A stretch of DNA of 64,000 nt from a virus, in the IMG/VR virus record IMGVR_UViG_3300025770_000006, positions 109,359 to 173,358 of that record. One strand, given 5' to 3'. How positions within the stretch are numbered: the first letter of the stretch is position 1; the number at the start of each line of letters is the position of its first letter. Of the stretch, positions 27,686 to 45,113 are shown piece by piece. A program made the translations under genes and the position numbers. The notes under the pieces were generated by a model. That model was not told the DNA's origin. It did no database searches and saw only the letters and a program-made list of their open reading frames with translations.

Positions 27686-27747
27686 AATGTCCTCCTAGAT
27701 TGACATGAGAGCTAAGGGAAAGTTTTGTTATTCATTTATATTTGAAC

Positions 27748-27763
27748 TATAAACGAACTATTA
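27748..27763 (-). promoter_or_regulatory. Putative late-promoter motif (TAATAGTTCGTTTATA) upstream of the tail operon
   Basis: Matches the recurring TAGTTTNTTTATA consensus, oriented toward the tube gene. Confidence 0.55.
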
Positions 27764-27785
27764 AAGACTATGTGAGGTTGTGTAT

Positions 27786-28535
27786 ATGTCATTTACATCA
27801 AATGAGAAATCTTATGGTGGGTATTCGTCTTTCTCTCCCATGCGTCACGCTGAACGAGAAGGCGATAAAAAAGAGAGAAACAAGAATGTACCCGCTTATG
27901 TTCATGATAAGGTAGAAGAGATCATGGAGAAGCAAAAAGATAAAGATGAGGGTAAGGCATGGGCTGTGGCGTGGTCGATTTATTGTAAATATAAGAAACC
28001 AGGATCGGATCACTGTAAAAAAGAGAAGGACGATTATTTCCCTAGTCGGAATAAAAAAGCCACATGGACAAAACAAGAGCAACGAGAGATCAGAAGAAGA
28101 ACACTTAGGATCATGGGTAAATTAGATCAGCTCGTGAGTAAAGGTCTCCAACACATCACTAAGATCATTAAAGTGAACACGAATACAGAGCGTGAAGAAC
28201 AACTTGTATGGCATATGTTAACCTACGGTAAGTTCCCTACCTATATGTTCAAAATATCTACCGAAGCTCGTATCTTAGGTAAGATTTCTGGCCTAATGCA
28301 CCACGATAAGAAGGTGTCTGACATCACTTACCAAGAAGAGAAGGTGGCTTACAAAACACTCTATAAGATTTGTAAATACTGCCACATTTATTGGTCTAGT
28401 AAAGTGTGGTCAAAAGTATGGATTGCATCGGGCGACATTCCGATTCGTACTATTCGTGTTGAGTTTTTAACGCTTCATAATGTTGAGTTCAATGTAGAAT
28501 ATACAAGATTGCTTAGGTACTTATTTGATAGCTGA
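27786..28535 (+). CDS. Hypothetical protein with an N-terminal ChaB-like AWAVAW motif
   Basis: EGKAWAVAWSIYCKYK, followed by a KKA junction and an unrelated domain. Confidence 0.5.
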   Translation: MSFTSNEKSYGGYSSFSPMRHAEREGDKKERNKNVPAYVHDKVEEIMEKQKDKDEGKAWAVAWSIYCKYKKPGSDHCKKEKDDYFPSRNKKATWTKQEQREIRRRTLRIMGKLDQLVSKGLQHITKIIKVNTNTEREEQLVWHMLTYGKFPTYMFKISTEARILGKISGLMHHDKKVSDITYQEEKVAYKTLYKICKYCHIYWSSKVWSKVWIASGDIPIRTIRVEFLTLHNVEFNVEYTRLLRYLFDS

Positions 28536-28582
28536 AATCATATAAAGTACATTCCACACCCATAAAGGAGGGGTGTACTCAT

Positions 28583-30184
28583 ATGGACAATAAGAAACTA
28601 CTCGCTACGATTGAAAAGCTCAGAGAGATAAGAGTCAAAGAAGATCTTACCCCACCTGCTTGTAAGATGCTTAATACACATATGCCTAATGGTGGGGAGA
28701 TAAAGCTAAGACAGTATCAGATACAAGGTGTGCTTCACCTTTTGGCAATGCCTAGATTCGTTCTAGGTGATGATACAGGACTTGGGAAAACCCTACAAGT
28801 AATCGCAACACTCGCTTATTTATGGGAAAAACGACCCGATATACCAGCAATCATCTGCACGACTAAGAGTGCTGTTGGTCAATGGGAATCCGAGTTCGAT
28901 AAGTTCACTACAGGAGTAACGATCTTCAAATGCTTGGGGACTAAAAAGAAAAGAGCGAAAATCCATGCCGAGTTTAAAGAATTTGTGGGACCAAAAGCTA
29001 TGGTCATGGGATATAGAACAGCAGTAAATGACTTTCAATACCTTCAAAGCATGACGGGTCATGTAATGGTCTTCGATGAAGCGACTGCTTTTAAAAATGA
29101 TCGTGCTCAAGTTCACCAAGTCTGTCTACACCTTGCAGGTTCAGCAGAGCGTGTATGGTCTTTATCTGCAACCATCATTAAGAATAGACTCATGGAAGCA
29201 TGGGCTATTTATAAGGTGACTGTCCCCCATATCTTTGGGAATAAAACTAACTTTATGCGTGAGTATTGTATCACTAGAGATCAAACAATACCTGGTTCTC
29301 GTAGGCGTATTAAGATTGTGGTTGGACACCGTAAGCGTGATATAGAAGCCTTTCGTGAACACATTGATCCTTACTTTTTAGGTAGACCAAAACATGAAGT
29401 CGCTAAAGAGTTACCCCCACTGACAACTAAAGTCATCCACTGTGATTTGAGTAAACCTCAAAAGAATAAGTATGCCGAAGCCCTACAAGGTCTACTTGAA
29501 TACACAGACCCCGAAACTGGCGAGGTGATGGAGCGAGAAGTCACGAAACTCACAGCAGTTACAGTTTGTCAGCAAATTGTAAACCACCCTGCACTTATCG
29601 ACTGCGATGGGGAATCAGGTAAACTAGAGACTCTACTTGATGTTTTAGATAATGAACTTAACGGTGAAAAAGTGATTATCTTCTCTCGATTTAGGGGCAT
29701 GATAGATATTCTTGAGGCAGAACTAGAAGCAAAGAAGATTAAAACCGTTCGTATCACTGGTACAGAGAATGGTAATCAGCGTATGGCTAGTCAAAAGGCA
29801 TTTCAAGATGAGAAAGATGAGACTAAAGTTTGTCTCATTACAATGGCGGCGGCTGAAGGTATTAATCTCCAACTCGCTAAAGCGGTTGTCTTTTATGACA
29901 CCCCTTGGAGTGCTGGTGATTACTTGCAGATCATTGGTCGTATGATTCGTATTGGATCAATTCACGAGAAGGTATTCAGTTATCATATCTGTGCTCCTAA
30001 GACCATTGATGAGCGTGTAATGAAAACCCTAAAGGCTAAGATGGGTTTGATTGAAGCTGTCTTAGGAAAGCGTCTTAAAGAGGATGGGGAAGAAGACTCA
30101 ATTCTTGAAGTCGGTCAATCCGAGATTGCTGATCTCTTTGATGGTCTACTTGACGATGCGAGGGACATTATAAAAGTTAAGTAA
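28583..30184 (+). CDS. SNF2-family (SF2) helicase
   Basis: GDDTGLGKT, DEAT, LSAT, EGINLQ and QIIGRMIRIG motifs. Confidence 0.92.
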   Translation: MDNKKLLATIEKLREIRVKEDLTPPACKMLNTHMPNGGEIKLRQYQIQGVLHLLAMPRFVLGDDTGLGKTLQVIATLAYLWEKRPDIPAIICTTKSAVGQWESEFDKFTTGVTIFKCLGTKKKRAKIHAEFKEFVGPKAMVMGYRTAVNDFQYLQSMTGHVMVFDEATAFKNDRAQVHQVCLHLAGSAERVWSLSATIIKNRLMEAWAIYKVTVPHIFGNKTNFMREYCITRDQTIPGSRRRIKIVVGHRKRDIEAFREHIDPYFLGRPKHEVAKELPPLTTKVIHCDLSKPQKNKYAEALQGLLEYTDPETGEVMEREVTKLTAVTVCQQIVNHPALIDCDGESGKLETLLDVLDNELNGEKVIIFSRFRGMIDILEAELEAKKIKTVRITGTENGNQRMASQKAFQDEKDETKVCLITMAAAEGINLQLAKAVVFYDTPWSAGDYLQIIGRMIRIGSIHEKVFSYHICAPKTIDERVMKTLKAKMGLIEAVLGKRLKEDGEEDSILEVGQSEIADLFDGLLDDARDIIKVK

Positions 30185-30235
30185 TCTGTTCTTTATTGAT
30201 CTCTTATTCATATAAGGTGTAGCAAAGGAGTCATT

Positions 30236-30934
30236 ATGGATAAATGTAAAAAATGTGGTGGTGTAGGCTACACACAAAAAGATAATGGACACATGGGTAT
30301 GCCTCAAGCTATCCAATGCGATTGTGTTATTGATAAAGCCCTAGATGAACAAGCAGAGAGGGCATGGACACATTTAAGCGTAGCTCCCATTCGCAAGCGT
30401 TCTATGCTTAACGGTAAGGTTTCTAAGAACCTTGTCATCACAGCCACTACAGATCAGTTGAGATTACATCTTAGATCTGCGTTAGGAAATCTTAGGAATC
30501 CTAATGTGTTTGTCAAAGTCATTGGGGATCACACGCTCATGTCTTCTTGGCTAGGGTCTATGATGATTCAAGGGAAAGACATAGCAGACCCAGACTTTCA
30601 GAGAGACTTAAAAGTTTACTCTTTGGATGACCTTGCTGAAGCACCGTATCTCATGGTGATAAGGCTTGGTACAAAAGTAGCACGAAATGCGGCTATGTCT
30701 GAGGTCGTTGTTGAAACGATTGAGATTCGAGAACATTTGAAGAAACCTACTTGGCTTATCATTGATCCCGACAAACCACTTGAGGAAGGGCATATTGCAT
30801 GGAGTCAATTATTAGAGGACACGATTCACCCTTGGGATCGTATAAACCTTAATGAAAATACTTCCTCAAGTCGTACCCGAACTTCAAAGAAAAGCGTATC
30901 TAATATGGGGCAACATAAGCGAGTGAAACTATGA
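30236..30934 (+). CDS. Probable helicase loader (DnaC/IstB-like, degenerate) with an N-terminal Zn finger
   Basis: CKKCGG...CDC at the N-terminus; coupled to the DnaB-like gene; no recognisable Walker A. Confidence 0.5.
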   Translation: MDKCKKCGGVGYTQKDNGHMGMPQAIQCDCVIDKALDEQAERAWTHLSVAPIRKRSMLNGKVSKNLVITATTDQLRLHLRSALGNLRNPNVFVKVIGDHTLMSSWLGSMMIQGKDIADPDFQRDLKVYSLDDLAEAPYLMVIRLGTKVARNAAMSEVVVETIEIREHLKKPTWLIIDPDKPLEEGHIAWSQLLEDTIHPWDRINLNENTSSSRTRTSKKSVSNMGQHKRVKL

Positions 30935-32457
30935 GTGATATTTTAAGAAGCATACTCCCAGATGAGCCAAGAGGTGATGACCCTAAGCTCATGTTTCAAA
31001 ACTACTGTTCTCTTAAGGAGTCTGTCTTACGCTTTGACTTACCCTCAGAAGTCAATGTGTTCGAGTATGTTGAGGACTTCACTCTCAAGCATGGTCATTT
31101 ACCTTCGCAACAGGGAGTTAGAGAATACTTTGAAGAGAATCAATCCTTTGATGAAGCAGATCGTATTCAACAGATCGCTAACCGACCAGTCTCTTATCGA
31201 GGTGACTTTGTATCCCTAATCGAAAGACGAGTTGAAGAAGGTCGGATGACTAAGTTAGCTTCTGTTATGGCTGACGCTAAAGTCATCGCTCGTACAGGGC
31301 TTGAGGTTAAAGAAGGTCGGACAAAGAAGATCATTAAGGGTTCAAGGGATGCGGGGAACTTCCTACTCAATGAGATTGCTAAGATAAACACCCCTACCTT
31401 TGGCTCTCGTATCGGGGGAGAAATCTTAGGTGATGGTGAAGACTTTTGGAATGAGTATGAACGCACTTGTAATAAACAAACTGACATCCTCCCACAAACA
31501 GGGCTATCTATTATTGATAATGCTATCGGTGGGTTCAAGAGAAAAGAACTATACATCATGGCGGCTTTTACAGGTCACCTTAAATCTACCTCAAGTTTAA
31601 ATTGGGTTTACAATCAGTCTGTCTATGGAGGGACTGATACACTGTATTTCTCTCTTGAAATGCACTATACTCAATGTAGACGCATCATCTATGTCTATCA
31701 TTCTATGCACCCTAAGTTCCGAGATAAGCGTATCGCTTTGGGTATACAGCAGGGTCAAACAGATGCAGGTATTGATCCAGACAAGATCAAAAAGGGAACA
31801 CTTACAGAAGATGAGCGTTCTTACATGAGAGATGTCATTGAAGATCTCGACAACGGTATGAAACAAGGAAATTATGGGTCAATCCACATTGAGGTTGCCG
31901 ATCCCGATGTTCTTGACTTCACAGTTGAAAACATCCGTACTAGAGCCGAGCTACTTTATCAAAAGGCCCCTTTCAAGATGATGGTGGTAGACCATGCTTT
32001 ATTGGTCTCCCCTCGTAAGTGGGTAGCGTCCACTACGGATCGGTTAAATGAGGTCATCAGAGATCTTAAAAAGACATCTCTTGGATTTAATCGTGGTGAA
32101 GGTATTCCTGTCTTATGTCTGTTTCAGATCAGTCGTGAGGGTTATAAGTCAGCCGAGAAAAACGGTGGGTCTTACAACCTCACTCACTTGAGTTATGCAA
32201 ATGAAGCAGAGCGTTCTGCTGATCTTGTGATCTCAAGTTGGTATGGTGATGATAAGCGTGAGAACAGTTTGGTTAAATACCAATGCCTCAAGTCTCGTGA
32301 CCAAGCCCCCTTTGAAGAGTTTGACGCACAAATCGCTTGGCCTTATGGTCGTATCCTCGATATGCCTTTACAGTTCCAAACGAACACCTCTTATAAGAGC
32401 AAAGGTAAAAAGACTGAAGTGTTTGACGATCCTTTAGACGCTCTCATGGATCTGTAA
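30931..32457 (+). CDS. DnaB-like (SF4) replicative helicase
   Basis: TGLSIID...AFTGHLKS (Walker A), FSLEM, VVDH, LFQISRE, ERSADLV, KSRD. Confidence 0.88.
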   Translation: MSDILRSILPDEPRGDDPKLMFQNYCSLKESVLRFDLPSEVNVFEYVEDFTLKHGHLPSQQGVREYFEENQSFDEADRIQQIANRPVSYRGDFVSLIERRVEEGRMTKLASVMADAKVIARTGLEVKEGRTKKIIKGSRDAGNFLLNEIAKINTPTFGSRIGGEILGDGEDFWNEYERTCNKQTDILPQTGLSIIDNAIGGFKRKELYIMAAFTGHLKSTSSLNWVYNQSVYGGTDTLYFSLEMHYTQCRRIIYVYHSMHPKFRDKRIALGIQQGQTDAGIDPDKIKKGTLTEDERSYMRDVIEDLDNGMKQGNYGSIHIEVADPDVLDFTVENIRTRAELLYQKAPFKMMVVDHALLVSPRKWVASTTDRLNEVIRDLKKTSLGFNRGEGIPVLCLFQISREGYKSAEKNGGSYNLTHLSYANEAERSADLVISSWYGDDKRENSLVKYQCLKSRDQAPFEEFDAQIAWPYGRILDMPLQFQTNTSYKSKGKKTEVFDDPLDALMDL

Positions 32458-33677
32458 TGTTCTTTGAAATCGACAAACCTAAACTCCCACCCCTCAAGGA
32501 GCTGAACCTATTAGATAAGAACAACGAGTTCTCGATTCCGTCCGACCTGTGGGCTTCTATCTTAGACCAATACACGAAGCAAGAAATCATCGAGCATTTT
32601 TCGGATCTTATTGAGAACACTCCTGTGCCTTTCCCCTATAGAGTCTACGGTCTTGGAAATGTCCGTAAGGACTACCTAGAGCTTTGCTCTGATACAGTGA
32701 AATGGGAAGAAGAAAGATGGGAGGCACTAAGGACACCTAAAGACCTTCCTATGCTCTATAAGGACAGGCCGATACACCTCGATTACATAAGTAAAAAAGG
32801 ACTGTCTGTGTCGGATATGTTCACACAAGAAATACGAATGGAGTGTGGACATAAGTCAAGCCCATCGCCCACTCGACAATGGGATCGGGTTGGATATAAA
32901 TCAAAAGTTAGACCCATCTTAAAAGTCTTGATGGGATTGAACTTAAGTAGAACACTGAGGAGTGGTGTGTATAAGACTGCCATGTTTGATTGCCTCCGAC
33001 TTGGTAGGTACATGGCGAGTCAGTTTAAGCCCTCTTGTGCTAAAGCTATCTACGATTTCTTTGGTGCAAAGAAAGTGTTAGACTTCAGTGCTGGTTGGGG
33101 TGATAGGCTGGTTGGCTTTCATGCCTCTGATGCCGAGTCTTACATCGGCATAGATCCAAATACTAGACTCCACATTCAGTATAAAAAGATCTCCTCATTC
33201 TGTAACACCGATAAGGAGGTTAGGTTCATCTGCTCTCCTGCTGAAGATGCAGACTTATCTGATGTTAAAGTAGACTTCATTTTTACAAGCCCTCCTTATT
33301 TTGATACCGAGAGATATAGCCAAGAAGGAACTCAGTCGTGGAAGAGATACCCGACAATGAATGGATGGTTGAGTGGATTTCTTTACCCTACCCTCAATAA
33401 GAGTTGGGAAGCGTTAGAGGAAGGGGGTCGGATAGCAATCAATATAACTGATGTTCTTGATGGGAGTCATTACTTAGAAATCATCAAACCGATGATTGAG
33501 TACATGGAGGGCTTAGGTGCTACTTATGAAGGAGTAGTCGGATATAGGACGAAAAAGAGACCAGGCGAAAATCAAGGGATTGTTGGAGGGAGCGTGTTCT
33601 GCGAACCTATCTTCATTTGGTCTAAGGGGGAAGCTCTCGAACCTAAGTGGCATCAAGATAACTACTTCGGAGTTTGA
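32457..33677 (+). CDS. DNA amino-methyltransferase (N4-C or N6-A), paralog 1
   Basis: VLDFSAGWGDR (SAM binding) and FTSPPYF (catalytic) motifs. Confidence 0.85.
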   Translation: MFFEIDKPKLPPLKELNLLDKNNEFSIPSDLWASILDQYTKQEIIEHFSDLIENTPVPFPYRVYGLGNVRKDYLELCSDTVKWEEERWEALRTPKDLPMLYKDRPIHLDYISKKGLSVSDMFTQEIRMECGHKSSPSPTRQWDRVGYKSKVRPILKVLMGLNLSRTLRSGVYKTAMFDCLRLGRYMASQFKPSCAKAIYDFFGAKKVLDFSAGWGDRLVGFHASDAESYIGIDPNTRLHIQYKKISSFCNTDKEVRFICSPAEDADLSDVKVDFIFTSPPYFDTERYSQEGTQSWKRYPTMNGWLSGFLYPTLNKSWEALEEGGRIAINITDVLDGSHYLEIIKPMIEYMEGLGATYEGVVGYRTKKRPGENQGIVGGSVFCEPIFIWSKGEALEPKWHQDNYFGV

Positions 33678-33774
33678 CTATGAGACTCATTTATACTGTA
33701 GCCTTTATAAGTACAATACCTGTAAAGAACGCAGGGAAAGCCTGCCTCAATGCAGTCAATCTTTAGGAGAATGA

Positions 33775-34980
33775 ATGTTTTTTGATTATGAAAAAAAAGC
33801 CAAAGATAAGATAGACGAATATGAGGTTGTAAGAGGACAAGAGATCTTCATACAACCTCATCAGTGGTCAGAGATGCTTGATAAGTTTACTCGTGATGAG
33901 ATCATCACTTACTTATCAACTAAGATCGAAGGGATACCATTCCCATATACTAAATATACTCCTCAAGAGGTGCATCGTGATTGGTTAGATGTTCAGTCCG
34001 ACTATATGACACCAGTGGCAGGAGAGTGGGGATTACCTCGATGTCAGTTAGAGGATGCTCATACTTACAAAGGTAGGTATCTTTACTTCGCACCTAATAA
34101 CAAAGGACTCAAAGTCTCTAATCAGTTCACCGAGTTCGCAAGAGTATTAGTAGACCATCGAGAATATAAAAGTGCCATGACTCAATGGACTCGAATAGGT
34201 ATGAAGGGCGATAAGAGATACTTCCTTAGACCCTTTTTCACCCTATACGACAGGTCTAAAGGGGTTAATAGGAAAATGCTCTTTAACGCTATAAATATGT
34301 CTTATTACATACCTGCTCAGTTCAAACCAACACTCTCCAAAGCCATGTATAACTTCTTCGGGGCAAAGAAGGTCTTAGATTTCTCTATGGGATGGGGTGA
34401 TAGGCTAGTTGGTTTCCTCGCTTCTGACGCTCTGTCGTATGTTGGTATTGACCCTAATACAAAACTCCATGAGCCTTATGGACAAATAGATTCGTACTGT
34501 AATGCAAACAAAGAAACTAAGTTCATTTGTTCTCCAGCTGAGGATGCTGACCTAACTGATGTTAAAGTAGACTTTATCTTCACAAGCCCTCCTTACTTTG
34601 ATACCGAGAAGTATAGCCAAGAAGATACTCAGAGTTGGAAGAGATACCCCAAAACAGATGACTGGCTCAATGGATTTCTTTACCCGACACTCAAGAAATG
34701 TTGGGAGGTATTAGAAGACGGAGGACGGATCTGCGTCAATATCTCAGACAAGGTTTATGGTGATATACGAGTATGCCAACCCATGATTGAATACATGGAG
34801 TCATTAGGTGCTACTTACGAGGGAGTGATTGGTTATAGGATGTCCAAGAGACCAGGAAATCACCATTCATTGAACGAGGATCTGTCTAAGGTAAGTGTTT
34901 TTTGCGAACCTATTTTCATTTGGAGTAAGGGAGAAGCCCCCGAACCTAAATGGAATCAAGATAACTTCTTTGGGGTATAA
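33775..34980 (+). CDS. DNA amino-methyltransferase, paralog 2
   Basis: VLDFSMGWGDR and FTSPPYF. Confidence 0.85.
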   Translation: MFFDYEKKAKDKIDEYEVVRGQEIFIQPHQWSEMLDKFTRDEIITYLSTKIEGIPFPYTKYTPQEVHRDWLDVQSDYMTPVAGEWGLPRCQLEDAHTYKGRYLYFAPNNKGLKVSNQFTEFARVLVDHREYKSAMTQWTRIGMKGDKRYFLRPFFTLYDRSKGVNRKMLFNAINMSYYIPAQFKPTLSKAMYNFFGAKKVLDFSMGWGDRLVGFLASDALSYVGIDPNTKLHEPYGQIDSYCNANKETKFICSPAEDADLTDVKVDFIFTSPPYFDTEKYSQEDTQSWKRYPKTDDWLNGFLYPTLKKCWEVLEDGGRICVNISDKVYGDIRVCQPMIEYMESLGATYEGVIGYRMSKRPGNHHSLNEDLSKVSVFCEPIFIWSKGEAPEPKWNQDNFFGV

Positions 34981-35009
34981 TCCTATAAGGGTCTTGAAAG
35001 GATTTAAGT

Positions 35010-36242
35010 ATGTTCTTTGATTATGAAAAAACCAAAAAAGAGAACCTTGAAGAGTATGAGGTTTTGAGAGGGAATGAGATCTTTATCCCACCCCATCAGT
35101 GGCTAGAGATGGTAGATAGTTTTAGTAGAGATGAGATCACTGATTATCTGTCTGCAAAGATTGAAGATTTACCTTACCCCTTCACTAAGTACACACCACA
35201 AGAGATCAAGAAAGATTGGTTAGAGGTTCAGTCCGATTACATGATCCCGATTGAGGGTGCTTGGGGATTGCCACGATGTCAGTTAGACGAAGACCATACT
35301 TACAAAGGTAGGTATATTTACTTCGCACCTAATAACAAAGGACTCAAAGTCTCTAATCAATATAGTGAACCTATGCGTTTAGAGGTAGACCATAAGCAGT
35401 TCCCAAGTGCAATGAGACAATGGACACGAACTAACCTCAAGTCCAAAAAGAGAGCGTTCCTTAGACCTTTATGGACATTGTATGATCCGTCAAAAGGTGT
35501 GAACAGCAAGATACTTGTAAACGCTATCGGTATGTCTGGTTATATCCCAGCACAGTTCAAACCTACTTTAGCTAAGGCGATGTATAACTTCTTCGGGGCT
35601 AAAAGAGTATTGGATTTCTCTATGGGATGGGGCGATAGATTAGTTGGATTCCTATCTTCTGATGCCGAGTCCTATGTAGGATTAGACCCTAATACAAAAC
35701 TCCATGAGCCTTATCAGAAGATCGCTGATTATTGTTCTACGAGTAAGACCACTAGGTTCATCTGCTCTCCTGCCGAAGATGCAGACCTGTCTGATGTTAA
35801 AGTAGACTTCGTTTTCACGAGTCCACCTTATTTCGACACCGAGAAATATAGTCAGGAGGAGACTCAATCATGGAAGCGTTATCCAGAGACTGATGATTGG
35901 CTGAATGGGTTTCTTTACCCAACCCTCAAGAAATGTTGGGATTGCTTAGAAGAGGGAGGGAGGATATGCGTAAACATCTCTGATAAAGTCAGAGGAAACA
36001 TACGAGTGTGTCAGCCCATGATTGAGTATATGGAGTCATTAGGTGCTACTTATGAAGGCGTGATTGGTTATCGGATGGCAAAGAGGCCAGGAAACCACCA
36101 CTCTTTAAATGATGAGTTGTCCAAGATGGATGTTTTCTGTGAGCCGATTTTCATTTGGAGTAAGGGAGAAGCCCCCGAACCTAAATGGAATCAAGATACT
36201 TACTTTGGGGTGTGTGAGGTCGGTCATGTGGGGAAACCTTGA
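35010..36242 (+). CDS. DNA amino-methyltransferase, paralog 3
   Basis: VLDFSMGWGDR and FTSPPYF; close duplicate of paralog 2. Confidence 0.85.
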   Translation: MFFDYEKTKKENLEEYEVLRGNEIFIPPHQWLEMVDSFSRDEITDYLSAKIEDLPYPFTKYTPQEIKKDWLEVQSDYMIPIEGAWGLPRCQLDEDHTYKGRYIYFAPNNKGLKVSNQYSEPMRLEVDHKQFPSAMRQWTRTNLKSKKRAFLRPLWTLYDPSKGVNSKILVNAIGMSGYIPAQFKPTLAKAMYNFFGAKRVLDFSMGWGDRLVGFLSSDAESYVGLDPNTKLHEPYQKIADYCSTSKTTRFICSPAEDADLSDVKVDFVFTSPPYFDTEKYSQEETQSWKRYPETDDWLNGFLYPTLKKCWDCLEEGGRICVNISDKVRGNIRVCQPMIEYMESLGATYEGVIGYRMAKRPGNHHSLNDELSKMDVFCEPIFIWSKGEAPEPKWNQDTYFGVCEVGHVGKP

Positions 36243-37152
36243 TGTATCTAACTTAGATGTATTGACTCCATACATCGAGTCTGCTTTAGAGAGAAATCTC
36301 CTGTATTACAATCTCAACCCTTTTGAATTCCTAGCCTTTAAAACAAAAGGCAACTTGTTCAAGATTGAAAACAATACCTTACATTTTGGTTGGCATGGTG
36401 TAATCGGAGCGAGGTTCTTAAAGCTCTACTTCCCCCCTATTCACTTATACGGTGATGAAGAGATTGAAAGGGAATCTGTTTTAAAAGCTACAAATGAGGG
36501 ATGCTCTTTGTGGATCGAAAAGGAGCACTCGAAGGCTTTAGGTGTCAAAGCCAAAACTATCTCGGAGTATCGAGGAGCTTATCAGCCCATATACCATAGA
36601 GACTATCAACTAGCGGGTAAGAAATATAAAAATATGAGGAGAGATAGAAATATCCTCCATTCTCTCATTGAGAGTGGTGAGTTAGAGTTTGTATTTGACT
36701 ACCCCTTAAAAGGTCTTACAGGACTCAATAATGCTTGGCTAAGTCAGACTGGTCGTAAAAGGTCTGTGTTTGACTTTTGTCTTCAGAACGAAAAGCACCT
36801 CACACACAGGATCAAAAACCTAACCCTACTTAACAGAGATGGTGAGCCTATCACATCCTCTCTGTACGCTATATATTCACCAGATAAATGGCATTGTATA
36901 GGTGCGATCTCGGACTATGGGAAGATACCTATTGGTGGGTTGCAAAGACAGTCTGATCTGTATCTGTTTGAGTTGGAGGAAAAAGTCAACTTAGTGATGG
37001 TTGGTGGGTATAGCTATAAAGAGCTGAAGTTCTCTAAATTGGCATTACCACACAGTGTTTATAGGTTAGGCACACTACCTTCCAATATAACTGTGACCAA
37101 AGATATATGGGAGTCCTTTAGACCGAAGCCTCAGACCTATTTTGGAGTGTGA
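36226..37152 (+). CDS. DUF2156 / aminoacyl-tRNA-dependent transferase-like (Fem/MprF C-terminal GNAT fold) protein, paralog A
   Basis: ATG at 36226 after GAGGT; FPPIHLYGDEE; IY...LAGKKYKNMRRDRN resembles the DUF2156 L.G.KY...RN..N motif. Confidence 0.55.
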   Translation: MWGNLDVSNLDVLTPYIESALERNLLYYNLNPFEFLAFKTKGNLFKIENNTLHFGWHGVIGARFLKLYFPPIHLYGDEEIERESVLKATNEGCSLWIEKEHSKALGVKAKTISEYRGAYQPIYHRDYQLAGKKYKNMRRDRNILHSLIESGELEFVFDYPLKGLTGLNNAWLSQTGRKRSVFDFCLQNEKHLTHRIKNLTLLNRDGEPITSSLYAIYSPDKWHCIGAISDYGKIPIGGLQRQSDLYLFELEEKVNLVMVGGYSYKELKFSKLALPHSVYRLGTLPSNITVTKDIWESFRPKPQTYFGV

Positions 37153-37153
37153 A

Positions 37154-38077
37154 ATGTGGAACTACCTAACCCCCAAAGACTTTGAGACATTGATACCTTA
37201 CTTAAAGAGTGCAATACAACGAGGGTGGAAGTATTACGATCTCTGTGTGATAGATCGTATGTGGTGTTATAATAATCAAATCCTCTTCAAGATAGAGAAC
37301 GACATATTATATGTGTCTAGGTTGCACCGCTTCATTAATAACTTAATCCATAAGATGCAGTTCCCTCCAATCCACTTGTACGGTGATGAGGAACTTGAAA
37401 AGAAAGCCTTGCTAGGAGCTTTGGAAATAGGTGTGTCCGTAAACGCCACAAAGCAAGTCGCAAAAGACCTCGGATTAAAATACACCTTAATGAGTCAATG
37501 GGATGGTGGGTGTGAAGTGGTCTATACAAAAGACCATCTCAAAATGGACGGTAAAAAATATGCAAAGCGAAGAGGTGAGTTAAACAAAATCAAAAGGTTG
37601 ATTTCTAGCGGTCAACTCATGGTCAAACTCGATAGTGATTTAGATTCTTTGTACGGTCTGTTTCAAACATGGAAAAGGCAACAAGGGTACAAAACAGGGA
37701 TGTATGAATACCTCCTTAAAAACAAAGAATACTTACCCTACTTAAAAGTCTTTAGTGTGCGTAACTCTGATAAGGTAGTGTTTGCATCTGTGTTCCTAAA
37801 CATCGACAAATCGACTTGGATTTCCCCTTGCTCAATGACGGATTATGAAAATACAGTTAGTGGGTTTCAAAGACTCTCTAAGATCCTCCTGTTAGATATG
37901 CAGGAAGATTTAGAAACGATCATCGAAGGTGGGTGGGTCACAGAAGAAATCAAAAGAGGAAAGACATTGATCCCTCACGAGATATGGAGGATCGCTAAAA
38001 TCATAAGCCCCAAAAAGCTCTCGAAGATTGAGTGGGAGAGTTTTAAGCCAAAACCGAATACCTACTTTGGAGTTTAA
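37154..38077 (+). CDS. DUF2156 / aminoacyl-tRNA-dependent transferase-like protein, paralog B
   Basis: FPPIHLYGDEE and VY...MDGKKYAKRRGELN; paralog of the preceding gene. Confidence 0.55.
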   Translation: MWNYLTPKDFETLIPYLKSAIQRGWKYYDLCVIDRMWCYNNQILFKIENDILYVSRLHRFINNLIHKMQFPPIHLYGDEELEKKALLGALEIGVSVNATKQVAKDLGLKYTLMSQWDGGCEVVYTKDHLKMDGKKYAKRRGELNKIKRLISSGQLMVKLDSDLDSLYGLFQTWKRQQGYKTGMYEYLLKNKEYLPYLKVFSVRNSDKVVFASVFLNIDKSTWISPCSMTDYENTVSGFQRLSKILLLDMQEDLETIIEGGWVTEEIKRGKTLIPHEIWRIAKIISPKKLSKIEWESFKPKPNTYFGV

Positions 38078-38078
38078 T

Positions 38079-40091
38079 ATGTTATTTGAAACAACATTCA
38101 ACGCTGAGAGTTTCTACAAGAAGTTTACACCAATCTTAAAAGAGATCTCTGTACCAGAAAACTTAGTGCCGTTTGCAGAGTGCTTATCCGAGTATCACGA
38201 ACTAGACTTAGATATTTCCGTTGAGCCTAAAGTATTTGTAGATCCACAAGATGGTGGCGACCAAAAAAAAGCCATCGTTCTTTTATCTGGAGGGATTGAT
38301 AGTGCTTGGTGTCTCTTATGGGCTTTAGAACAAGGTCTGAATCCACAACCTTTATTTGTGGATGGGCTGAACGCTTCTCAAAACTCTCGTGAGCGTAAAG
38401 CTGTCCAAGTCTTATGTGATAAGCTAGACCTGCCCCTCATCACATATAAACACCCAACCCATCTCAAAAAGCTACATAAAGATCCGTCTAATATATTCAA
38501 GATACCAGAGAGCTTTGTGAAACTACAGTATGCTCTGATGGCAATCAAAGATGACATACGAAAAGAGGGCATAGCAGGGGTCATTGTCACCTGCCCTACT
38601 AACCAACCCGAATACATTGACCCTACTGCACCTAAGAAAGAAAATGGGGAACCGCTGACATGGTTTCAAGACTCAGAAGAGTCTATGGAAACTTTCTTAC
38701 CGTTCCTCTCCGATTATATTGGGTGGGGTTTTAAAGGATACTACCCTGTCACCATGAAAGAGCAGAAGATAAAAGCTCTAATGGACAAAGGGATCTTTGA
38801 AGATACCTGCTCGTGCGTATGCAATCCTATGTTCTTTTCGGGTCATCGTAAGAGATCAAAACCCAAGTATTCCAATATGTGCGGCGTGTGTTGGAAGTGC
38901 AAAGAAAACCTAGCTTTCATCAGTAAACTTAACCGAGATGATGAAGTCGTTGAAGATGAGATGCCAGAAGAGCCTCAAATGAAACCTTGGCAAAAAGGAT
39001 ATGAGTTAGATTATCTTAAAAGCGTAGAGGGTCAGTTCAACGCTTTTAATGACCTGTGTATTTCCCCATTCCTACAGATGAAAAAAAATAAAGTCGCAGA
39101 CCACTTACACGATGGCACTTTAATCCTTAAAGACGGATTTAGGTGCATCCTTAAAAAGTCTAAAACTAGAACGAGTATAAAAGTGTACTCGAATAGGGAT
39201 CACACCCTCGCTTATAAAGATGTAGGCGAGTTCGCTATGGGTAAGTTAGTCATTGATGATGTGAGTGAGTTTAAAGAATACTGCGATAAGATTGATCAGA
39301 ACATTTGGGTCATCAGCTTTGACTCGATTGAGAAAGATCTTCTCTCATGCGGGTTTGTTAAGCTAGGATATAAATACACCTCCTTTGGTGATGATCTCAC
39401 TGTGTTCCTTTTGCAAAAGCAAATCGACTTTTTCGGTACGAACACAAATAGACTAATCTTTAATGACCCTTTAGAAAGAGCTACCTGTGTGAAACTCGAC
39501 TCCAACTTTGAGGTTGAGTCCATCGCAGATAAGTTAGCCGCTTACGAATTTAAGAAGCACTACTCCAACTACAATAGTGGTGGGTGGTCAGCTATCAGTC
39601 TAAGAGGGTTTAGCGATGACCCCTCCTTCATTATCAAACCAGAAGAGATGAATGATAAATGGACGGAGCAAAACTCAGAGACAGATTTCTATCTGAGAGA
39701 CACCGAAGCGTATGAATATTTTAGCGAGGTAAGGGAGATCATAAACACAGTCGCCCCAAACCAAAAGATCGAGAGGGTGAGAATAATGAAGCTCTCTGAA
39801 GGATCTGAGATTAAAAAGCATACTGATCTAGTAGATCCAGATTGTGGTGTCGGGGTAGGAGAAACAGCAAGGTTTCATGTGCCGATTAAAACAAAAGATG
39901 CTGTCTTTGAGGTATGGGGACAAAATGGTAAAGAGTCATTCTCTTTAGAGAAGGGTTCTCTATGGTATCTCGACACAAGAAAACCACACCGAGTCATTAA
40001 CCCAACCAGCGATAGATACCATCTTGTTTTTGATGTCTTTGTTGATCAAGAAATAAGAGAACTTATCAAGAGATGCTTAAATGTTCTTTGA
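38079..40091 (+). CDS. QueC-like PP-loop ATPase fused to an Asp/Asn beta-hydroxylase-type 2OG-Fe(II) oxygenase
   Basis: IVLLSGGIDS; TCSC...CGVCWKC; C-terminal RVRIMKL...HTD...RFHVPI...KPHRVIN...RYHLVFD. Confidence 0.75.
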   Translation: MLFETTFNAESFYKKFTPILKEISVPENLVPFAECLSEYHELDLDISVEPKVFVDPQDGGDQKKAIVLLSGGIDSAWCLLWALEQGLNPQPLFVDGLNASQNSRERKAVQVLCDKLDLPLITYKHPTHLKKLHKDPSNIFKIPESFVKLQYALMAIKDDIRKEGIAGVIVTCPTNQPEYIDPTAPKKENGEPLTWFQDSEESMETFLPFLSDYIGWGFKGYYPVTMKEQKIKALMDKGIFEDTCSCVCNPMFFSGHRKRSKPKYSNMCGVCWKCKENLAFISKLNRDDEVVEDEMPEEPQMKPWQKGYELDYLKSVEGQFNAFNDLCISPFLQMKKNKVADHLHDGTLILKDGFRCILKKSKTRTSIKVYSNRDHTLAYKDVGEFAMGKLVIDDVSEFKEYCDKIDQNIWVISFDSIEKDLLSCGFVKLGYKYTSFGDDLTVFLLQKQIDFFGTNTNRLIFNDPLERATCVKLDSNFEVESIADKLAAYEFKKHYSNYNSGGWSAISLRGFSDDPSFIIKPEEMNDKWTEQNSETDFYLRDTEAYEYFSEVREIINTVAPNQKIERVRIMKLSEGSEIKKHTDLVDPDCGVGVGETARFHVPIKTKDAVFEVWGQNGKESFSLEKGSLWYLDTRKPHRVINPTSDRYHLVFDVFVDQEIRELIKRCLNVL

Positions 40092-41256
40092 ATATAAGAC
40101 TGAACTTAACTCACTAGACGACATTGAATATATTAAAGATGGCTATCTTCACATACGCCCTAACGAATGGAGTATGCTTCGTGAGAAATATACTAAGGAA
40201 GATATCAAAGACCATATCGCACCCATCGTTGAGTCTTTACCTTATCCTTACTCTGAGTACACAACGGAGTCTGCAAAGAAGGACTTCATAAGCCTCAAAG
40301 CGAAAAAAGAGCCATTCGTATTTGATGAATGGGTAGCACCACGCCAAGCTACTCCCCTAGAGACTACTTATCTAGGTAAGCACATTTACCTCAACAGCTA
40401 TTACAAAGGTAAAGAGGTGTCTAACCTGTTCACTCAAGAACAGAGGATGAAATGTAGCTATCGCACACAAGGTAACTCACCTTATGACGAATGGGTCAAC
40501 GCTAGTAAGAATAACTCGTTCCTACGATGCTTCTTCGGTATCTGTGAAAATGACATTTATGAGAGGGGTGGGGTCAATAAACAAACCCTTAGAAGAGCAT
40601 TGAAGATGCACACATATATGGCTAGTCAGTTCAAAGCTGAGTCTGCTAAAGCTCTCTATGATCTGTTCCAATCTAAAAGCGTCTTAGATTTCTCAGCAGG
40701 TTGGGGTGATAGGTTAGTAGGCTTCCTAGCTTCAAATGCCGACTCCTATATTGGGATTGATCCTAATACTAAGCTCCATGAACCATATCAGCAAATCGTC
40801 AACCTCTGTGATACAGGTAAAGAGGTTAGGTTTATTTGCTCACCTGCTGAAAATGCTGACCTCTCTGATGTCAAAGTAGACTTTATCTTTACGAGCCCAC
40901 CATACTTTGACATCGAAAGGTACAGTACAGAGTCCACACAATCATGGAAGCGATACCCAGACCTTAAGGATTGGGTCAATGATTTCTTACTCGCTACCCT
41001 CACCAAGTGCTGGTCTGCACTTAAAGATGGTGGCCGGATAGCCATCAACATTGCGGATAAAAAAGGAGAGGACATCTGCACTCCTATGCTTGAACACATG
41101 AAGAATTTAGGGGCTACATATGAAGGGGTGATAGGATATCGAATGTCTGAGCGTGGTGGTCAGAAAACAGATTGCCCTACTTGTGAGCCGATCTTTATTT
41201 GGAGTAAGGGTTTAACACCCGAACCTAAATGGAATTATAATGAGTATTTTTTTTGA
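40081..41256 (+). CDS. DNA amino-methyltransferase, paralog 4
   Basis: VLDFSAGWGDR and FTSPPYF. Confidence 0.85.
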   Translation: MFFEYKTELNSLDDIEYIKDGYLHIRPNEWSMLREKYTKEDIKDHIAPIVESLPYPYSEYTTESAKKDFISLKAKKEPFVFDEWVAPRQATPLETTYLGKHIYLNSYYKGKEVSNLFTQEQRMKCSYRTQGNSPYDEWVNASKNNSFLRCFFGICENDIYERGGVNKQTLRRALKMHTYMASQFKAESAKALYDLFQSKSVLDFSAGWGDRLVGFLASNADSYIGIDPNTKLHEPYQQIVNLCDTGKEVRFICSPAENADLSDVKVDFIFTSPPYFDIERYSTESTQSWKRYPDLKDWVNDFLLATLTKCWSALKDGGRIAINIADKKGEDICTPMLEHMKNLGATYEGVIGYRMSERGGQKTDCPTCEPIFIWSKGLTPEPKWNYNEYFF

Positions 41257-41265
41257 AGAGGTGTT

Positions 41266-42393
41266 ATGCAGTTATTTAACTACAAAAAAATAGGAGGTCA
41301 GACCCTTAAATCAAAAGTGGTCTTAGATCCTGTCGTTGAAAAAGTAGCAAGTGAGTCCGACTATAAGTTCAATGGTGAAACTTCATTTGTTGTACCTGAG
41401 TTTGATGTTCCTCCCGACTTCACATTAGGAGTGATATATGGGCCGAGTGGTTCGGGTAAGTCTACCCTCTTAAAAGAATTCGGAGAAGAAGCTGTTGGAG
41501 CATGGGATCAATCTTTAGCTATAGCTTCTCAAGTAGACCCAAACCTACTCTTGAGACTCGGATTATCGTCTATCCCCTCTCTTTGCAGACCATATCATGT
41601 CTTAAGCACAGGTGAGAAACATAGAGCTGATATAGCTAAAAACCTAACAAATGGATGTGTCATAGATGAGTTCACTTCTGTGTGTAATCGAGACTTCGCT
41701 CAATCAATCTCTGTGGGACTGAGGAAAGTCATAGATCATTACGGATATAAAAATGTGGTCATCGCTACCTGCCACGAAGATGTCATAAATTGGTTAGAAC
41801 CAGATTGGGTTGCTAACACATTAACGAGGCGGCTCGTAGAAGGGAGGTCGGAAAGGCGATCTTCAACTTTTAGAGTTCTACCTTGCTCAGTCGAAGTCTG
41901 GTCAATCTTCAGCGACCATCATTATCTGAGTGGAGATCTCAACAAGGGTGCTCATTGTTGGCTACTCATCAACGAAAATAATACAATCTGTGGCTTCATG
42001 TCTGCGATTGCATTACCAGGAGGGAATGTACGCAATGCTTGGAGAACACATCGAACAGTAATCTTACCCGACTTTCAAGGTATGGGATTAGGGTCAAGAC
42101 TGTCTAATGCTATAGCTAAGATGTACTACGATAAAGGATGTCGATTCTTCGGTAAAACTGCACACCCAAAGCTCGGTGAACATCGAAACAACTCTGAACT
42201 ATGGAAACCCACAAGGAATAATAGAGTCAGCAACAAGAGTATGTCCTATGAAAAAATGAAGGACTCCAAATACTCTAAAAAGTTTCTGCAAAAGCACAAC
42301 AATAGAGTATGTTATGCACATGAATATATTGGCGATGGAACTATGAACTTGAAAGGTCAAGAGCCAAAAAAAGAGCATACTCCATTCTTTTGA
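41266..42393 (+). CDS. ABC-type ATPase fused to a GNAT (Mom-like) acetyltransferase
   Basis: GPSGSGKS, LSTGE, IDEFTS, TCHED; then HHYL and RTVILPDFQGMGLG (GNAT motif A). Confidence 0.85.
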   Translation: MQLFNYKKIGGQTLKSKVVLDPVVEKVASESDYKFNGETSFVVPEFDVPPDFTLGVIYGPSGSGKSTLLKEFGEEAVGAWDQSLAIASQVDPNLLLRLGLSSIPSLCRPYHVLSTGEKHRADIAKNLTNGCVIDEFTSVCNRDFAQSISVGLRKVIDHYGYKNVVIATCHEDVINWLEPDWVANTLTRRLVEGRSERRSSTFRVLPCSVEVWSIFSDHHYLSGDLNKGAHCWLLINENNTICGFMSAIALPGGNVRNAWRTHRTVILPDFQGMGLGSRLSNAIAKMYYDKGCRFFGKTAHPKLGEHRNNSELWKPTRNNRVSNKSMSYEKMKDSKYSKKFLQKHNNRVCYAHEYIGDGTMNLKGQEPKKEHTPFF

Positions 42394-42423
42394 TTTCTTA
42401 TAACCATAGTGAGGAGTGAGACT

Positions 42424-42771
42424 ATGAGTTTAGAAGAACTACTAAAAAGAAATCGGGTGCAACTGCAAAAGAAGCAGGGCGACTATCTGTACTTCATCCA
42501 GTCAAGCAAAACAGGGATGATAAAGATAGGTCGATCTAAACACCCTAAGAAGAGACTCAAACAACTTCAAACAGGGAACTCAAATACGCTCCGTATTATC
42601 GCCTCATTTGAAGGTTTAGGGTGGAGGGAACCCCACCTACACGAAGACCTCAAAAAGTGGCGTATACGCCAAAATGGAGAGTGGTTTCACCATGATTGTG
42701 TCGGGTCGATCCCTACTGATCTATATGAGATGATCGAATGGGGAGCGTTTGATGACTGGTGGAAACCTTAA
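42424..42771 (+). CDS. GIY-YIG-like (T5orf172/MUG113) nuclease-domain protein
   Basis: YFIQ...IKIGRSKHPKKRLKQLQTGN...GEWF. Confidence 0.85.
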   Translation: MSLEELLKRNRVQLQKKQGDYLYFIQSSKTGMIKIGRSKHPKKRLKQLQTGNSNTLRIIASFEGLGWREPHLHEDLKKWRIRQNGEWFHHDCVGSIPTDLYEMIEWGAFDDWWKP

Positions 42772-42788
42772 CGAGTAAAAAGAAACTA

Positions 42789-42935
42789 TTAACAATGATC
42801 CTCTTCTATTAAAGGTTGCGAATCTATCTTTCTCAACATCTCCTTTGGGTCAAGCTCATCAACAGAAGAATTATTCTGCGAGATTGACCCACAAGAGAAA
42901 AGAAAAAAGAGGAATAAAGAAAAAAGAAGTCTCAT
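42789..42935 (-). CDS. Small lipoprotein (48 aa), absent from the ORF track
   Basis: MRLLFSLFLFFLFS-CGSISQNNSSVDELDPKEMLRKIDSQPLIEEDHC*; promoter-like motif at 42977-42990. Confidence 0.6.
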   Translation of the reverse strand: MRLLFSLFLFFLFSCGSISQNNSSVDELDPKEMLRKIDSQPLIEEDHC

Positions 42936-42991
42936 GTGTTGTACCCTAACTTATTATCAATATCTCTAAAAAAGGGTATAAAGAAACTACA

Positions 42992-43025
42992 AATCCTCGT
43001 CATATTCCTGTTGAGCGAGGATTAA
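42992..43025. repeat. 34-bp third copy of the actin-gene 3' end (palindromic core)
   Basis: aatcctcgtcatattcctgttgagcgaggattaa, identical to 43504-43537 and 44114-44147. Confidence 0.95.
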
Positions 43026-43438
43026 GCCTCTTTTACTTCAATCTCTTTATGGTCATAGATAACTTGGAAAGTCATCTTATGAACATAATTTTCAACCCCA
43101 AAAAGTTGAAGTTTTCTGGGTCTATCCATCGTACACTTAACCTCAACTATTAGATCCCCAGCAAGATTAATAGATCGATACCCAAGAACTTTAATGTCTA
43201 AGTCGTCTGGTGTGTCTTCGGGAATATCAAAATCAAAAAAACCCTCGATGCCCAAGAAAAAGTCATATAAAGCGTCTTCTACCCAGTTTGATCTAACTCT
43301 TGACCCCGATAGTTTGCTTAAATCTTTTGCTATCGTGGTGGATAGGCTCTTGAGGGTTTCTTCCCGACTTGATTGTTTTTCAAGTCTAGCGATTCTTGAC
43401 TCAAGGTTACGGATAATTTCACTAGCTGATCTTCTCAT
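43022..43438 (-). CDS. Leader-tagged protein (MRRSASEIIRNLESRIARLEKQS) with unknown cargo
   Basis: Leader plus full upstream element; the stop codon lies inside the repeat. Confidence 0.8.
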   Translation of the reverse strand: MRRSASEIIRNLESRIARLEKQSSREETLKSLSTTIAKDLSKLSGSRVRSNWVEDALYDFFLGIEGFFDFDIPEDTPDDLDIKVLGYRSINLAGDLIVEVKCTMDRPRKLQLFGVENYVHKMTFQVIYDHKEIEVKEA

Positions 43439-43501
43439 GGTTTACTCCAGTGGTTTAAGGTTAATGAGATCACTTATGAGAAGATATAAAGAAACTACAA
43501 A

Positions 43502-44111: not shown

Positions 44112-45113
44112 TCAATCCTCGTCATATTCCTGTTGAGCGAGGATTAACATACCCTTAGAGACAGCATGGAGAGGGTCTGACGCATGACGAACCTCTGAGA
44201 TCTCGATAGGGAAACGCTTTTTCTTAGTCTCAAAGACCTCCCTAAAGAAGTCCATGAATCCACCTGCGAGACTTGTACCACCACCCACTACGATTGGAAT
44301 GGGTTTGTTAAGGGTGAGGTGTCCACCTTTCATCACAAACTGCTGTGCGATGTTATCTAAAGCGTGTTCAATAAGAGCCTTATAATAGAACGAGATCGCT
44401 TCTTCTTCTCTATTCTTAGGTGCTTTAAGGTCAATGCCCTTCTCTTTTACCGCACACATTTTAGAAGCTGTTGCACCTACTGATCGAGCCGCTCCTTGAT
44501 CAATCCAATCACCACCACGAGCAACGGAGAAGGATAACCCCTCAATGGTGCTGATAGCGAGAGCGATATTGGTCATACCAGAACCGAAACTAATCCCGAC
44601 ACCAGAAAAACCTTCCTTTGCAGTCTCTGCGAAGACGATAGCCATAGCTTCGTTGGCGGGGTGTGCAGTATATCCACATTCTTGAACGATGCGAGTGAAT
44701 ACACCCTTATGATAAACAACATCCATATTAGCGTCCACAGGAGCCGCAGGGATTGAGAAATAACAATGCTCTCCCTCATGGCTAGGGTCACCGAGAACAT
44801 CTTTGACCATATGTCCGAGAACGGTAAGGGAGTCGATCTCATCAGCAGAGATAAGACCTGCTTTAAGGGGTCTACGACCTTCTCTACCGAACATATTAGC
44901 TACTTCCATAGCTTCATCCCCAAGTACAAGTAGATTGTCGTCAGCTTCGATGTATGACACCGAGCCGAGTTTGAGCATCTTTTTAGCCGAAGATGGGAGA
45001 TCAATAAAGAGGTCACGCATCCTTCTTAGAGTTACTTCATTTTTCTTAGCACCACTCATGCGAGCAGACACCAAGTTCATAGTTCCAATGTCAAGTCCTA
45101 CACCTTTACTCAT
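44112..45113 (-). CDS. Actin-like ATPase (MreB/MamK/ParM superfamily)
   Basis: Phosphate-1 GLDIGTMN, connect NEAMA, phosphate-2 SFGSGMTN, adenosine VGGGTS, AVSKG. Confidence 0.85.
   Translation of the reverse strand: MSKGVGLDIGTMNLVSARMSGAKKNEVTLRRMRDLFIDLPSSAKKMLKLGSVSYIEADDNLLVLGDEAMEVANMFGREGRRPLKAGLISADEIDSLTVLGHMVKDVLGDPSHEGEHCYFSIPAAPVDANMDVVYHKGVFTRIVQECGYTAHPANEAMAIVFAETAKEGFSGVGISFGSGMTNIALAISTIEGLSFSVARGGDWIDQGAARSVGATASKMCAVKEKGIDLKAPKNREEEAISFYYKALIEHALDNIAQQFVMKGGHLTLNKPIPIVVGGGTSLAGGFMDFFREVFETKKKRFPIEISEVRHASDPLHAVSKGMLILAQQEYDED

Follow-up and report, generated by a model that had tools for sequence, protein, structure and literature searches.

Virus-borne DUF2156-type tandem-GNAT paralogs in a phage methyltransferase operon: a possible second route, beside Mom, to tRNA-dependent DNA modification

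Only one case is proven in which charged tRNA is the donor for a DNA modification: the Mom protein of phage Mu, which takes glycine from Gly-tRNA and attaches it to N6 of adenine in double-stranded DNA (PMC13219725, Nat Commun 2026; bioRxiv 10.1101/2023.03.24.534169), and which uses R111 and S124 as catalytic residues (PMC13219725). In the phages M6, ViI and PaMx11, free amino acids are appended after replication to kinase-activated 5-hydroxymethyldeoxyuridine (PMC8989533); in such thymidine hypermodification, the DNA-appended amino acids are then sculpted by pyridoxal phosphate (PLP) enzymes, acetyltransferases and other enzyme classes, in combinatorial modules (PMC8989533). Here, we describe two adjacent genes, FemL1 and FemL2, on a 64,000-nucleotide stretch of viral DNA (positions 109,359 to 173,358 of the IMG/VR record IMGVR_UViG_3300025770_000006, hereafter the window), which encode soluble tandem-GNAT proteins of the DUF2156 superfamily inside an operon of methyltransferase genes, and which may transfer amino acids from charged tRNA onto phage DNA. 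A previous interpretation of this DNA, made without database searches (the sequence-only reading), had held such a transfer to be new chemistry; this claim has to be given up, as Mom already carries it out (PMC13219725).

The likeness of the FemLs to Mom is one of a functional precedent: in both cases a phage enzyme of the GNAT superfamily would bring an amino acid from charged tRNA onto double-stranded DNA after replication. However, Mom is a single GNAT of another family and works alone, whereas the FemLs are two tandem-GNAT DUF2156 paralogs in an operon of several enzymes with a common tail; by analogy, we would say that the FemLs work like Mom rather than that they belong to the Mom family. 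Compared to M6, ViI and PaMx11, with which the locus would share the appending of amino acids after replication, their later sculpting and the modular build, a tRNA-type transferase here takes the place of the kinase-dependent attachment of free amino acids. In the literature searched, we found no paper connecting DUF2156, MprF-like or Fem-like enzymes with the modification of phage DNA; the full-text matches were Mom papers and a review on aminoacyl-tRNA synthetases.

FemL1 (36226-37152, + strand, 308 aa) and FemL2 (37154-38077, + strand, 307 aa) are neighbouring open reading frames (ORFs) with 105 of 310 residues identical over the full length (34%, E 1e-60), and the sequence-only reading was right in placing two Fem-like paralogs here. 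The stretches it had seen in both proteins, FPPIHLYGDEE and GKKY...R...N, lie in columns that are conserved across the 24-sequence family, in which P76, R144, G263 and K274 are invariant, and G137 nearly so. The family set comes from an exhaustive profile search of 1.84 billion protein representatives, which returned 23 of them; a word-based protein search gave no more than two close relatives, and a scan of viral contigs with a narrow family alignment found one locus. All members are basic, with isoelectric points of 8.2-9.7. In the tree, FemL1 forms a clade with P0003-P0005 and with a domain fused to another enzyme on the contig L011 (support 100/99).

The membership in the DUF2156/MprF-C/Fem structural class, which had also been proposed earlier, is borne out by profile matches to PF09924 (LPG_synthase_C, formerly DUF2156), to 2HQY and to L-PGS, and by the Fem-type tandem-GNAT fold described below. 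PF09924 is matched by 15 of the 24 aligned members (best E 3.6e-10), and P0018 and its two neighbours are unmarked PF09924 matches on record; the 24-member profile matches 2HQY at 8.3e-7 and the L-PGS structure 4V36 at 1e-3, and it also matches LpiA/MprF. The conserved basic helix, G-K-K-x(4)-R-x(3)-N, aligns with GKKRAGLRAIYN of L-PGS and GKKFQAKRNHIN of 2HQY; in the profile alignment, the GKKY..R...N helix of the family faces GKKR..LR...N in L-PGS. None of the 24 members matches FemABX (PF02388) at E 0.1 or better, and the acyl-CoA motif Q/RxxGxG/A is not conserved in their alignment. The FemLs are a divergent, soluble, virus-borne branch of the DUF2156 superfamily, and are neither MprF nor Fem proper.

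The AlphaFold2 model of FemL2, made with the family alignment, has a mean predicted local distance difference test score (pLDDT) of 92.8 and a predicted template modelling score of 0.89, with lower confidence in the last ~10 residues only, as would be expected for a free linear motif. The 311-residue model is a single compact tandem-GNAT body with no membrane domain, in agreement with the earlier claim, and both Foldseek and VIA comparisons with FemX and MprF agree with a tandem GNAT of Fem type. The best structural match is the stand-alone DUF2156 protein 2HQY of Bacteroides thetaiotaomicron (VIA-align Z 23.3, 274 residues aligned, root-mean-square deviation 3.5; Foldseek agrees), which is likewise soluble, about 300 aa long, built as a tandem GNAT and in possession of the GKK....R...N helix. 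In contrast to the FemLs, which sit in replication and modification modules, 2HQY is a cellular protein of unknown function without a Qxx[FY]F tail, and the identity is 14-15%. MprF, L-PGS and A-PGS (PF09924; 4V36, 4V35, 7DUW) follow at Z 16-17 and FemX/FemA at Z 14-15, over about 250-275 residues, along with the tRNA-dependent peptide synthases Sbb17 and Sba18 (Z 14.6). The MprF group has the superfamily, the fold and the signature helix in common with the FemLs, which would imply an aminoacyl-tRNA donor; however, these proteins carry a 14-helix flippase anchor and acylate the glycerol hydroxyl of phosphatidylglycerol, whereas the FemLs have neither a membrane part nor a lipid context. FemX/FemA (PF02388) and Sbb17/Sba18 are also tandem-GNAT aminoacyl-tRNA transferases, but they show no sequence match to the FemLs, and their acceptors are peptidoglycan precursors or streptothrisamine. 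All of the top 23 solved structural matches are aminoacyl-tRNA-dependent transferases or DUF2156 kin, and acyl-CoA tandem GNATs appear only from Z 11.4 downward, over 2 Z units below the last of these. Mom structures were not among the listed matches, which leaves room for one unlisted. The modelled fold and its nearest neighbours suggest that aminoacyl-tRNA is probably the donor used by the FemLs.

What the family acts on is best approached through two fusions. P0021 is a 956-aa protein with a ParB-like domain and a DNA methyltransferase, encoded on an unrelated phage contig with terminase and portal genes, and a complete FemL domain is inserted in its methyltransferase at residues 454-767 (hhalign probability 99.7%, E 1e-26). 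The FemL domain splits the match to phrog_12517 into model positions 29-153 and 157-311; motif I of the methyltransferase precedes the insertion, and the CPPY motif follows it. The four methyltransferases of the window (MT1 to MT4) match the same PHROGs as the P0021 methyltransferase; a direct BLAST of MT2 against the two P0021 halves gives a weak match (E 0.011) confined to motif IV, and the kinship therefore rests on the PHROG profiles in common. This insertion into a ParB-DNA-methyltransferase is the strongest argument we found for the family acting on DNA. The second fusion is found on L011, an 86.6-kb contig with at least 11 tagged methyltransferase paralogs, and is a 693-aa protein in which a FemL1-type domain (residues 9-305) precedes a GNAT-like/2-oxoglutarate (2OG) module (residues 319-693); this module is 66% identical to the window module that follows a QueC-like domain.

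The genomic contexts of the family point in the same direction. The sequence-only reading had proposed a look at the gene neighbourhoods of homologs, and in every recovered context these are phage DNA replication or DNA-modification modules; none is a lysis or envelope module. The contig of L002 and L004 carries the same operon, with proteins 90-97% identical to those of the window, and has a third FemL after PolA and a tagged methyltransferase. In L001 the order is PolA, FemL and a tagged PLP enzyme; in L015 it is a DnaB-like helicase, a PLP enzyme, FemL, a methyltransferase and a beta sliding clamp gene (6355-7356), which matches DnaN of B. subtilis (4TR6) at 8e-5. L017 has a tagged methyltransferase, a Dam-like methylase, T5orf172, FemL, primase, topoisomerase and PolA, and a T4-like contig has gp32, the clamp loader, three tandem PF09924 genes and a PLP enzyme. 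In L007, an ATPase-GNAT fusion that is homologous to one in the window (and ends in NFFGI) is followed by FemL and a QueC-like gene, and in L009 a FemL lies close to a stand-alone QueC-like gene; in both loci it is FemL2-like genes that the QueC-like genes stand beside. FemL lies close to ThyX in L010, and P0009 has ThyX and a PurB-like gene as neighbours. PLP enzymes of the PALP type adjoin FemL in L001, L015 and the P0018 contig, and one is found in the same operon in L011. Taken together, the insertion, the fusion and the contexts lend real but indirect support to an action of the FemLs on DNA. As a separate observation, a small gene of the Hc1 type (chlamydial histone H1-like, PF07432) lies a few genes from FemL in the related phages of L004 (7516-7704), L005 (11750-11938) and L009 (3271-3465).

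Both FemLs end in TYFGV (FemL1 37135-37149, FemL2 38060-38074, + strand), and aromatic tails ([YF]FGV, YFF or PFF) are found in the window on MT1-4, on both FemLs and on the ATPase-GNAT fusion, so that the C-terminal tag noticed earlier on FemLs and methyltransferases alike is indeed common to them. The loose pattern is otherwise matched in the window by the GIY-YIG ORF, one - strand ORF (LYY) and one antisense ORF. The reading frame of MT3 continues past its tail, with TGT where a 97%-identical relative (L002 7847-9064) has a stop codon; the extension reflects either an error in sequencing or natural read-through, in which case the tail would be buried. Among 120 listed methyltransferase homologs (of 2553), 112 have a tail of the type E-P-K-W-x-Q-D-N-[FY]-F-G-V, as against 5 of 120 listed homologs of the hydroxylase module (216 in all). 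An 11-member FemL clade that includes both window paralogs shows the tails TYFGV, YWFGV, NFFGV, NFFEV and NFFNI; PLP enzymes end in QYYF or NFFFKVQL, and ATPase-GNAT proteins in TPFF or NFFGI, while the C-termini in L017 are KQLTLFGDLQ for the Dam-like methylase and QQAFSLFQ for the FemL. The tail is present on at least five non-homologous enzyme families. Recent DNA exchange was considered as its origin and rejected, as the tail codons of FemLs and methyltransferases differ; the likeness is therefore kept by selection at the level of the protein. We also note that the DnaB-like helicase of L015 (546-2072) ends in ..GKPLLFSF, a tail of a similar general kind.

The consensus for binding to the beta clamp is a C-terminal Q-L-x-L-F (PMC4549789), and tails of the form Q-x-x-[FYL]-F agree with it at positions 1, 4 and 5; the pattern Q-x-x-[L/hydrophobic]-F is seen in many of them, such as QDNFF (methyltransferases), QENFF (P0007) and QLTLF (Dam-like methylase of L017), and the window FemL tails fit it partly only (PQTYF and PNTYF). 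We read clamp docking from the tail because of this match at three positions and because a clamp gene closes the L015 module, and suggest that the tail is a docking peptide for which a sliding clamp is most plausibly the hub. A reading of the tail as a PIP box does not fit, as the Q would come at position 4. In eukaryotes, DNMT1 is recruited by PCNA.

The enzymes around the FemLs were also analysed. Directly downstream of FemL2 lies a three-part fusion without a tail (38079-40091, + strand; PF06508, PF05118), made of a QueC-like PP-loop ATPase, a GNAT-like domain and a 2OG/Fe(II) domain resembling amino-acid hydroxylases. The QueC-like part matches QueC and Cap9; enzymes of the QueC family use ATP to activate a carboxylate, which those of CBASS then join to an amine on a protein (10.1101/2025.04.06.647259). 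The GNAT-like/2OG module occurs mainly as a stand-alone protein of ~375 aa (216 homologs), and was modelled from the FemL-fused version of L011 with a pLDDT of 94.9; its residues 9-150 match the GNAT acetyltransferase 2pc1 (Z 9.9), and its residues 165-371 are the 2OG/Fe(II) oxygenase part, closest to L-proline cis-4-hydroxylase (4p7x, Z 15.5), proline 3-hydroxylase (1e5r) and AspH (Z 14). A beta-hydroxylase of nucleoside-antibiotic synthesis is also near, and AlkB-type enzymes rank lower. A complex prediction of FemL1 with this module scored 0.00, which is evidence neither way. By analogy, the FemL neighbours, namely a hydroxylase, an enzyme of the ATP-dependent amidoligase type, GNATs and PLP enzymes, have the look of a hypermodification tailoring set.

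The methyltransferases belong to an SPPY family of approximately 400 aa, with four copies in the window, seven in a 37.6-kb relative and at least 11 in L011; MT2 has 2553 database homologs, many of them on the same contig. Nearly all start with MFF[DE]Y and end with QDN[FY]FGV, and the N-terminal ~190 aa are without a known domain. A motif M-[FL]-F-[DE] at the N-terminus is common to the methyltransferases and the QueC-like fusion (MLFETT, 38079-38100), and occurs also in L007, L009 and L017; these enzymes may thus have another peptide in common, at the opposite end of the protein.

Based on these data, we propose the following donor, acceptor, order of steps and hub. Host aminoacyl-tRNA would bind in the cleft between the two GNAT lobes of each FemL, and the aminoacyl group would be passed to a nucleophile on newly replicated phage DNA, either an exocyclic amine, in the manner of Mom, or a hydroxyl, the customary acceptor group of DUF2156 enzymes; each of the two old paralogs would have its own amino acid or its own target. 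The appended residue would then be tailored by the 2OG/Fe(II) hydroxylase-like domain, the QueC-like carboxylate-activating domain and the GNAT acetyltransferases, with PLP enzymes taking a share in related phages, while the methyltransferase paralogs would put methyl marks at other sites. The tail (..Q-D-N-[FY]-F-G-V) would hold the methyltransferases, the FemLs, the ATPase-GNAT protein and the PLP enzymes of relatives at a common hub, for which the best candidate is the sliding clamp that stays behind on newly made DNA. That FemLs move an aminoacyl group from host aminoacyl-tRNA to phage DNA, with neighbours that tailor it and a tail that recruits them, is a proposal to which we give even chances. 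We speculate, more tentatively, that this phage lineage and several unrelated ones bear an amino-acid-derived base, set from host aminoacyl-tRNA by DUF2156-type tandem GNATs and later hydroxylated, amidated and/or acetylated, and that all these enzymes ride the sliding clamp by way of the common tail, along with a swarm of amino-methyltransferase paralogs.

A number of results weigh against this proposal. Neither the window nor eight related loci yielded a tRNA gene, and no aminoacyl-tRNA synthetase turned up in partial Pfam scans; nothing therefore points to the amino acid used. FemL1 has no match in Pfam, and FemL2 reaches PF09924 at an E of 1e-3 and 18.7 bits, below the Pfam cut-off of 27.5, and it is because of these scores that we regard the window FemLs as a divergent branch. 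No DNA-binding domain is recognisable in FemL itself. The characterised DUF2156 enzymes acylate hydroxyls, yet Pfam scans of ~55 window ORFs found no hydroxymethyl-pyrimidine synthase, 5-hydroxymethyluracil DNA kinase or amino-acid:DNA transferase, in a window that is part of a genome and in which most structural-region ORFs are without any match. N-acyl groups on adenine are unstable (PMC13219725), and the final product can thus not be guessed. Some database sources label the methyltransferase homologs as the 16S rRNA m2G966 methylase RsmD, so that an RNA target is possible for the whole operon. As for the hub, the tail differs from QLxLF at position 2, and phmmer with the L015 beta clamp as query detected no clamp gene, neither in the window nor in any other of the loci.

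In the main rival reading, the FemLs are tRNA-dependent but transfer to something other than DNA, be it a nucleotide or small-molecule precursor that is afterwards incorporated into DNA or attached to it, a metabolite, or a protein (such as the clamp or a partner enzyme, compare L/F-transferase and ATE1). The acceptors known for this fold class are lipids, sterols, precursors of peptidoglycan, amines of natural products and the N-termini of proteins (structural matches; PMC13219725); ThyX and a PurB-like gene stand by P0009, MazG and a PAPS-reductase-like gene are found in the window, and the hydroxylase domain is closest to hydroxylases of free amino acids (4p7x, 1e5r). However, a FemL domain sits within a ParB-DNA-methyltransferase, the tail is common with enzymes that act on polymerised DNA, and FemL adjoins the clamp, PolA and methyltransferases in unrelated phages; in addition, a carrier protein and further biosynthetic genes are absent, and we consider such an acceptor rather unlikely. 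The donor might also be different, for example acyl-CoA, as in Eis, mycothiol synthase and VipF. The operon does hold two more GNAT-type domains, and the structural lists do contain acetyl-CoA tandem GNATs at lower ranks (Z 10-11.4), but the best 23 structural matches and the Z gap below them argue for a tRNA-dependent enzyme or DUF2156 kin, the sequence homology is to PF09924 only, and the CoA-pyrophosphate loop is not conserved, which makes another donor improbable.

Among characterised proteins, those nearest to the FemLs act on lipids and peptidoglycan, and the FemLs could accordingly remodel the host envelope, through aminoacylated phosphatidylglycerol or a cell-wall precursor, for example in superinfection exclusion. 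Yet they have no membrane domain or amphipathic anchor, and the isolated MprF synthase domain makes no aminoacyl-phosphatidylglycerol in vivo (PMC8131360); the lack of any lysis or envelope context, the methyltransferase insertion and the common tail are also contrary to it, and we hold it to be highly improbable. Finally, the fusions and insertions into other enzymes would suit a scaffold, and the FemLs could then be non-catalytic, tRNA- or DNA-binding adaptors of the methyltransferase and hydroxylase machinery. Yet P76, R144, G263 and K274 are invariant even though members are 16-25% identical to FemL2, the DUF2156 helix is kept, and one to three paralogs per genome suggest a diversified specificity; there is very little to recommend a purely passive role.

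The two FemL genes are part of a co-oriented, tightly packed + strand gene run at 28583-42771 of the window. It opens with replication genes (28583-32457, + strand; phrog_62, phrog_19) for an SNF2 helicase, a 232-aa Zn-ribbon protein and a DnaB-like helicase, an order that is kept in L002 and L011. These are followed by three of the SPPY amino-methyltransferase paralogs, all on the + strand: MT1 (32457-33677; PF01555; phrog_12517/498/67; tail QDNYFGV), MT2 (33775-34980; PF01555 at 2e-9; tail QDNFFGV) and MT3 (35010-36242; tail QDTYFGV plus 9 extra residues). After the FemLs and the three-part fusion come MT4 (40081-41256, + strand; tail NEYFF), the fusion of an ABC-type ATPase and a GNAT acetyltransferase (41266-42393, + strand; PF00583, PF00005; phrog_11143 at 1e-86; tail TPFF) and, as the last gene of the run, a GIY-YIG/T5orf172 protein (42409-42771, + strand; PF10544), which is probably a passenger, though it adjoins a FemL in L017 and L018 too. 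A consensus scan of 27000-43500 for promoters and terminators gave counts not above those of shuffled sequence.

The stop codons of FemL1 and FemL2 are spaced by one or two bases from the next start (GTG TGA A ATG and GTT TAA T ATG). FemL1 starts at ATG 36226, as seen from the N-termini of homologs. The FemL2 ORF opens at TTG 37142; the homologs begin at ATG 37154 (MWNYL), and because of this we take the latter as most likely the true start.

The window seems to be a piece of a highly novel phage: most of its structural ORFs have no PHROG or Pfam match, the FemL region found no match among GenBank phages in DNA and protein searches, no sequence relatives of the 232-aa protein and of MT2 were found in the PDB, and the nearest named record to the DnaB-like gene is an uncultured 485-kb phage. 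Outside the gene run, we observed a 333-aa actin-family protein (44112-45113, - strand; Pfam Volactin PF25216, E 5e-75), an actin homolog being unusual in a phage. A PP-loop protein of the PAPS-reductase type (8159-9019, - strand; PF01507, 1.7e-27) and a MazG-type nucleotide pyrophosphohydrolase (47919-48443, + strand) are of kinds that are frequent partners of phage nucleotide or DNA-modification pathways; a calcineurin-like phosphoesterase is encoded at 48498-49181 (+ strand). A DUF481 protein of the outer-membrane beta-barrel type (52659-53441, - strand), a Peptidase_C39-like protein (57920-58966, - strand) and a putative phage metallopeptidase (46834-47298, + strand) sit amid structural-region ORFs that are otherwise without a match.

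By analogy with Mom, a DUF2156-type route to tRNA-dependent DNA modification would be a second, undescribed variant. What the window adds is a clamp-motif-like tail across enzyme families, a fusion of FemL with a hydroxylase, and a recurring QueC-like partner, in a FemL module that occurs in marine and other uncultured phages. The presence of the tail on so many unrelated enzymes also gives rise to a separate idea, that enzymes of post-replicative modification are drawn to a common hub. If our proposal is true, tRNA-dependent DNA chemistry would be recurrent in viruses, with a second independent origin, and not a one-off; the orphan stand-alone DUF2156 fold would gain a new class of substrate, and the locus would represent the first clamp-tethered assembly line for DNA hypermodification. 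The resulting, hitherto undescribed hypermodified bases could block restriction enzymes and CRISPR nucleases, and the enzymes that make them would be new tools for site-directed DNA labelling.

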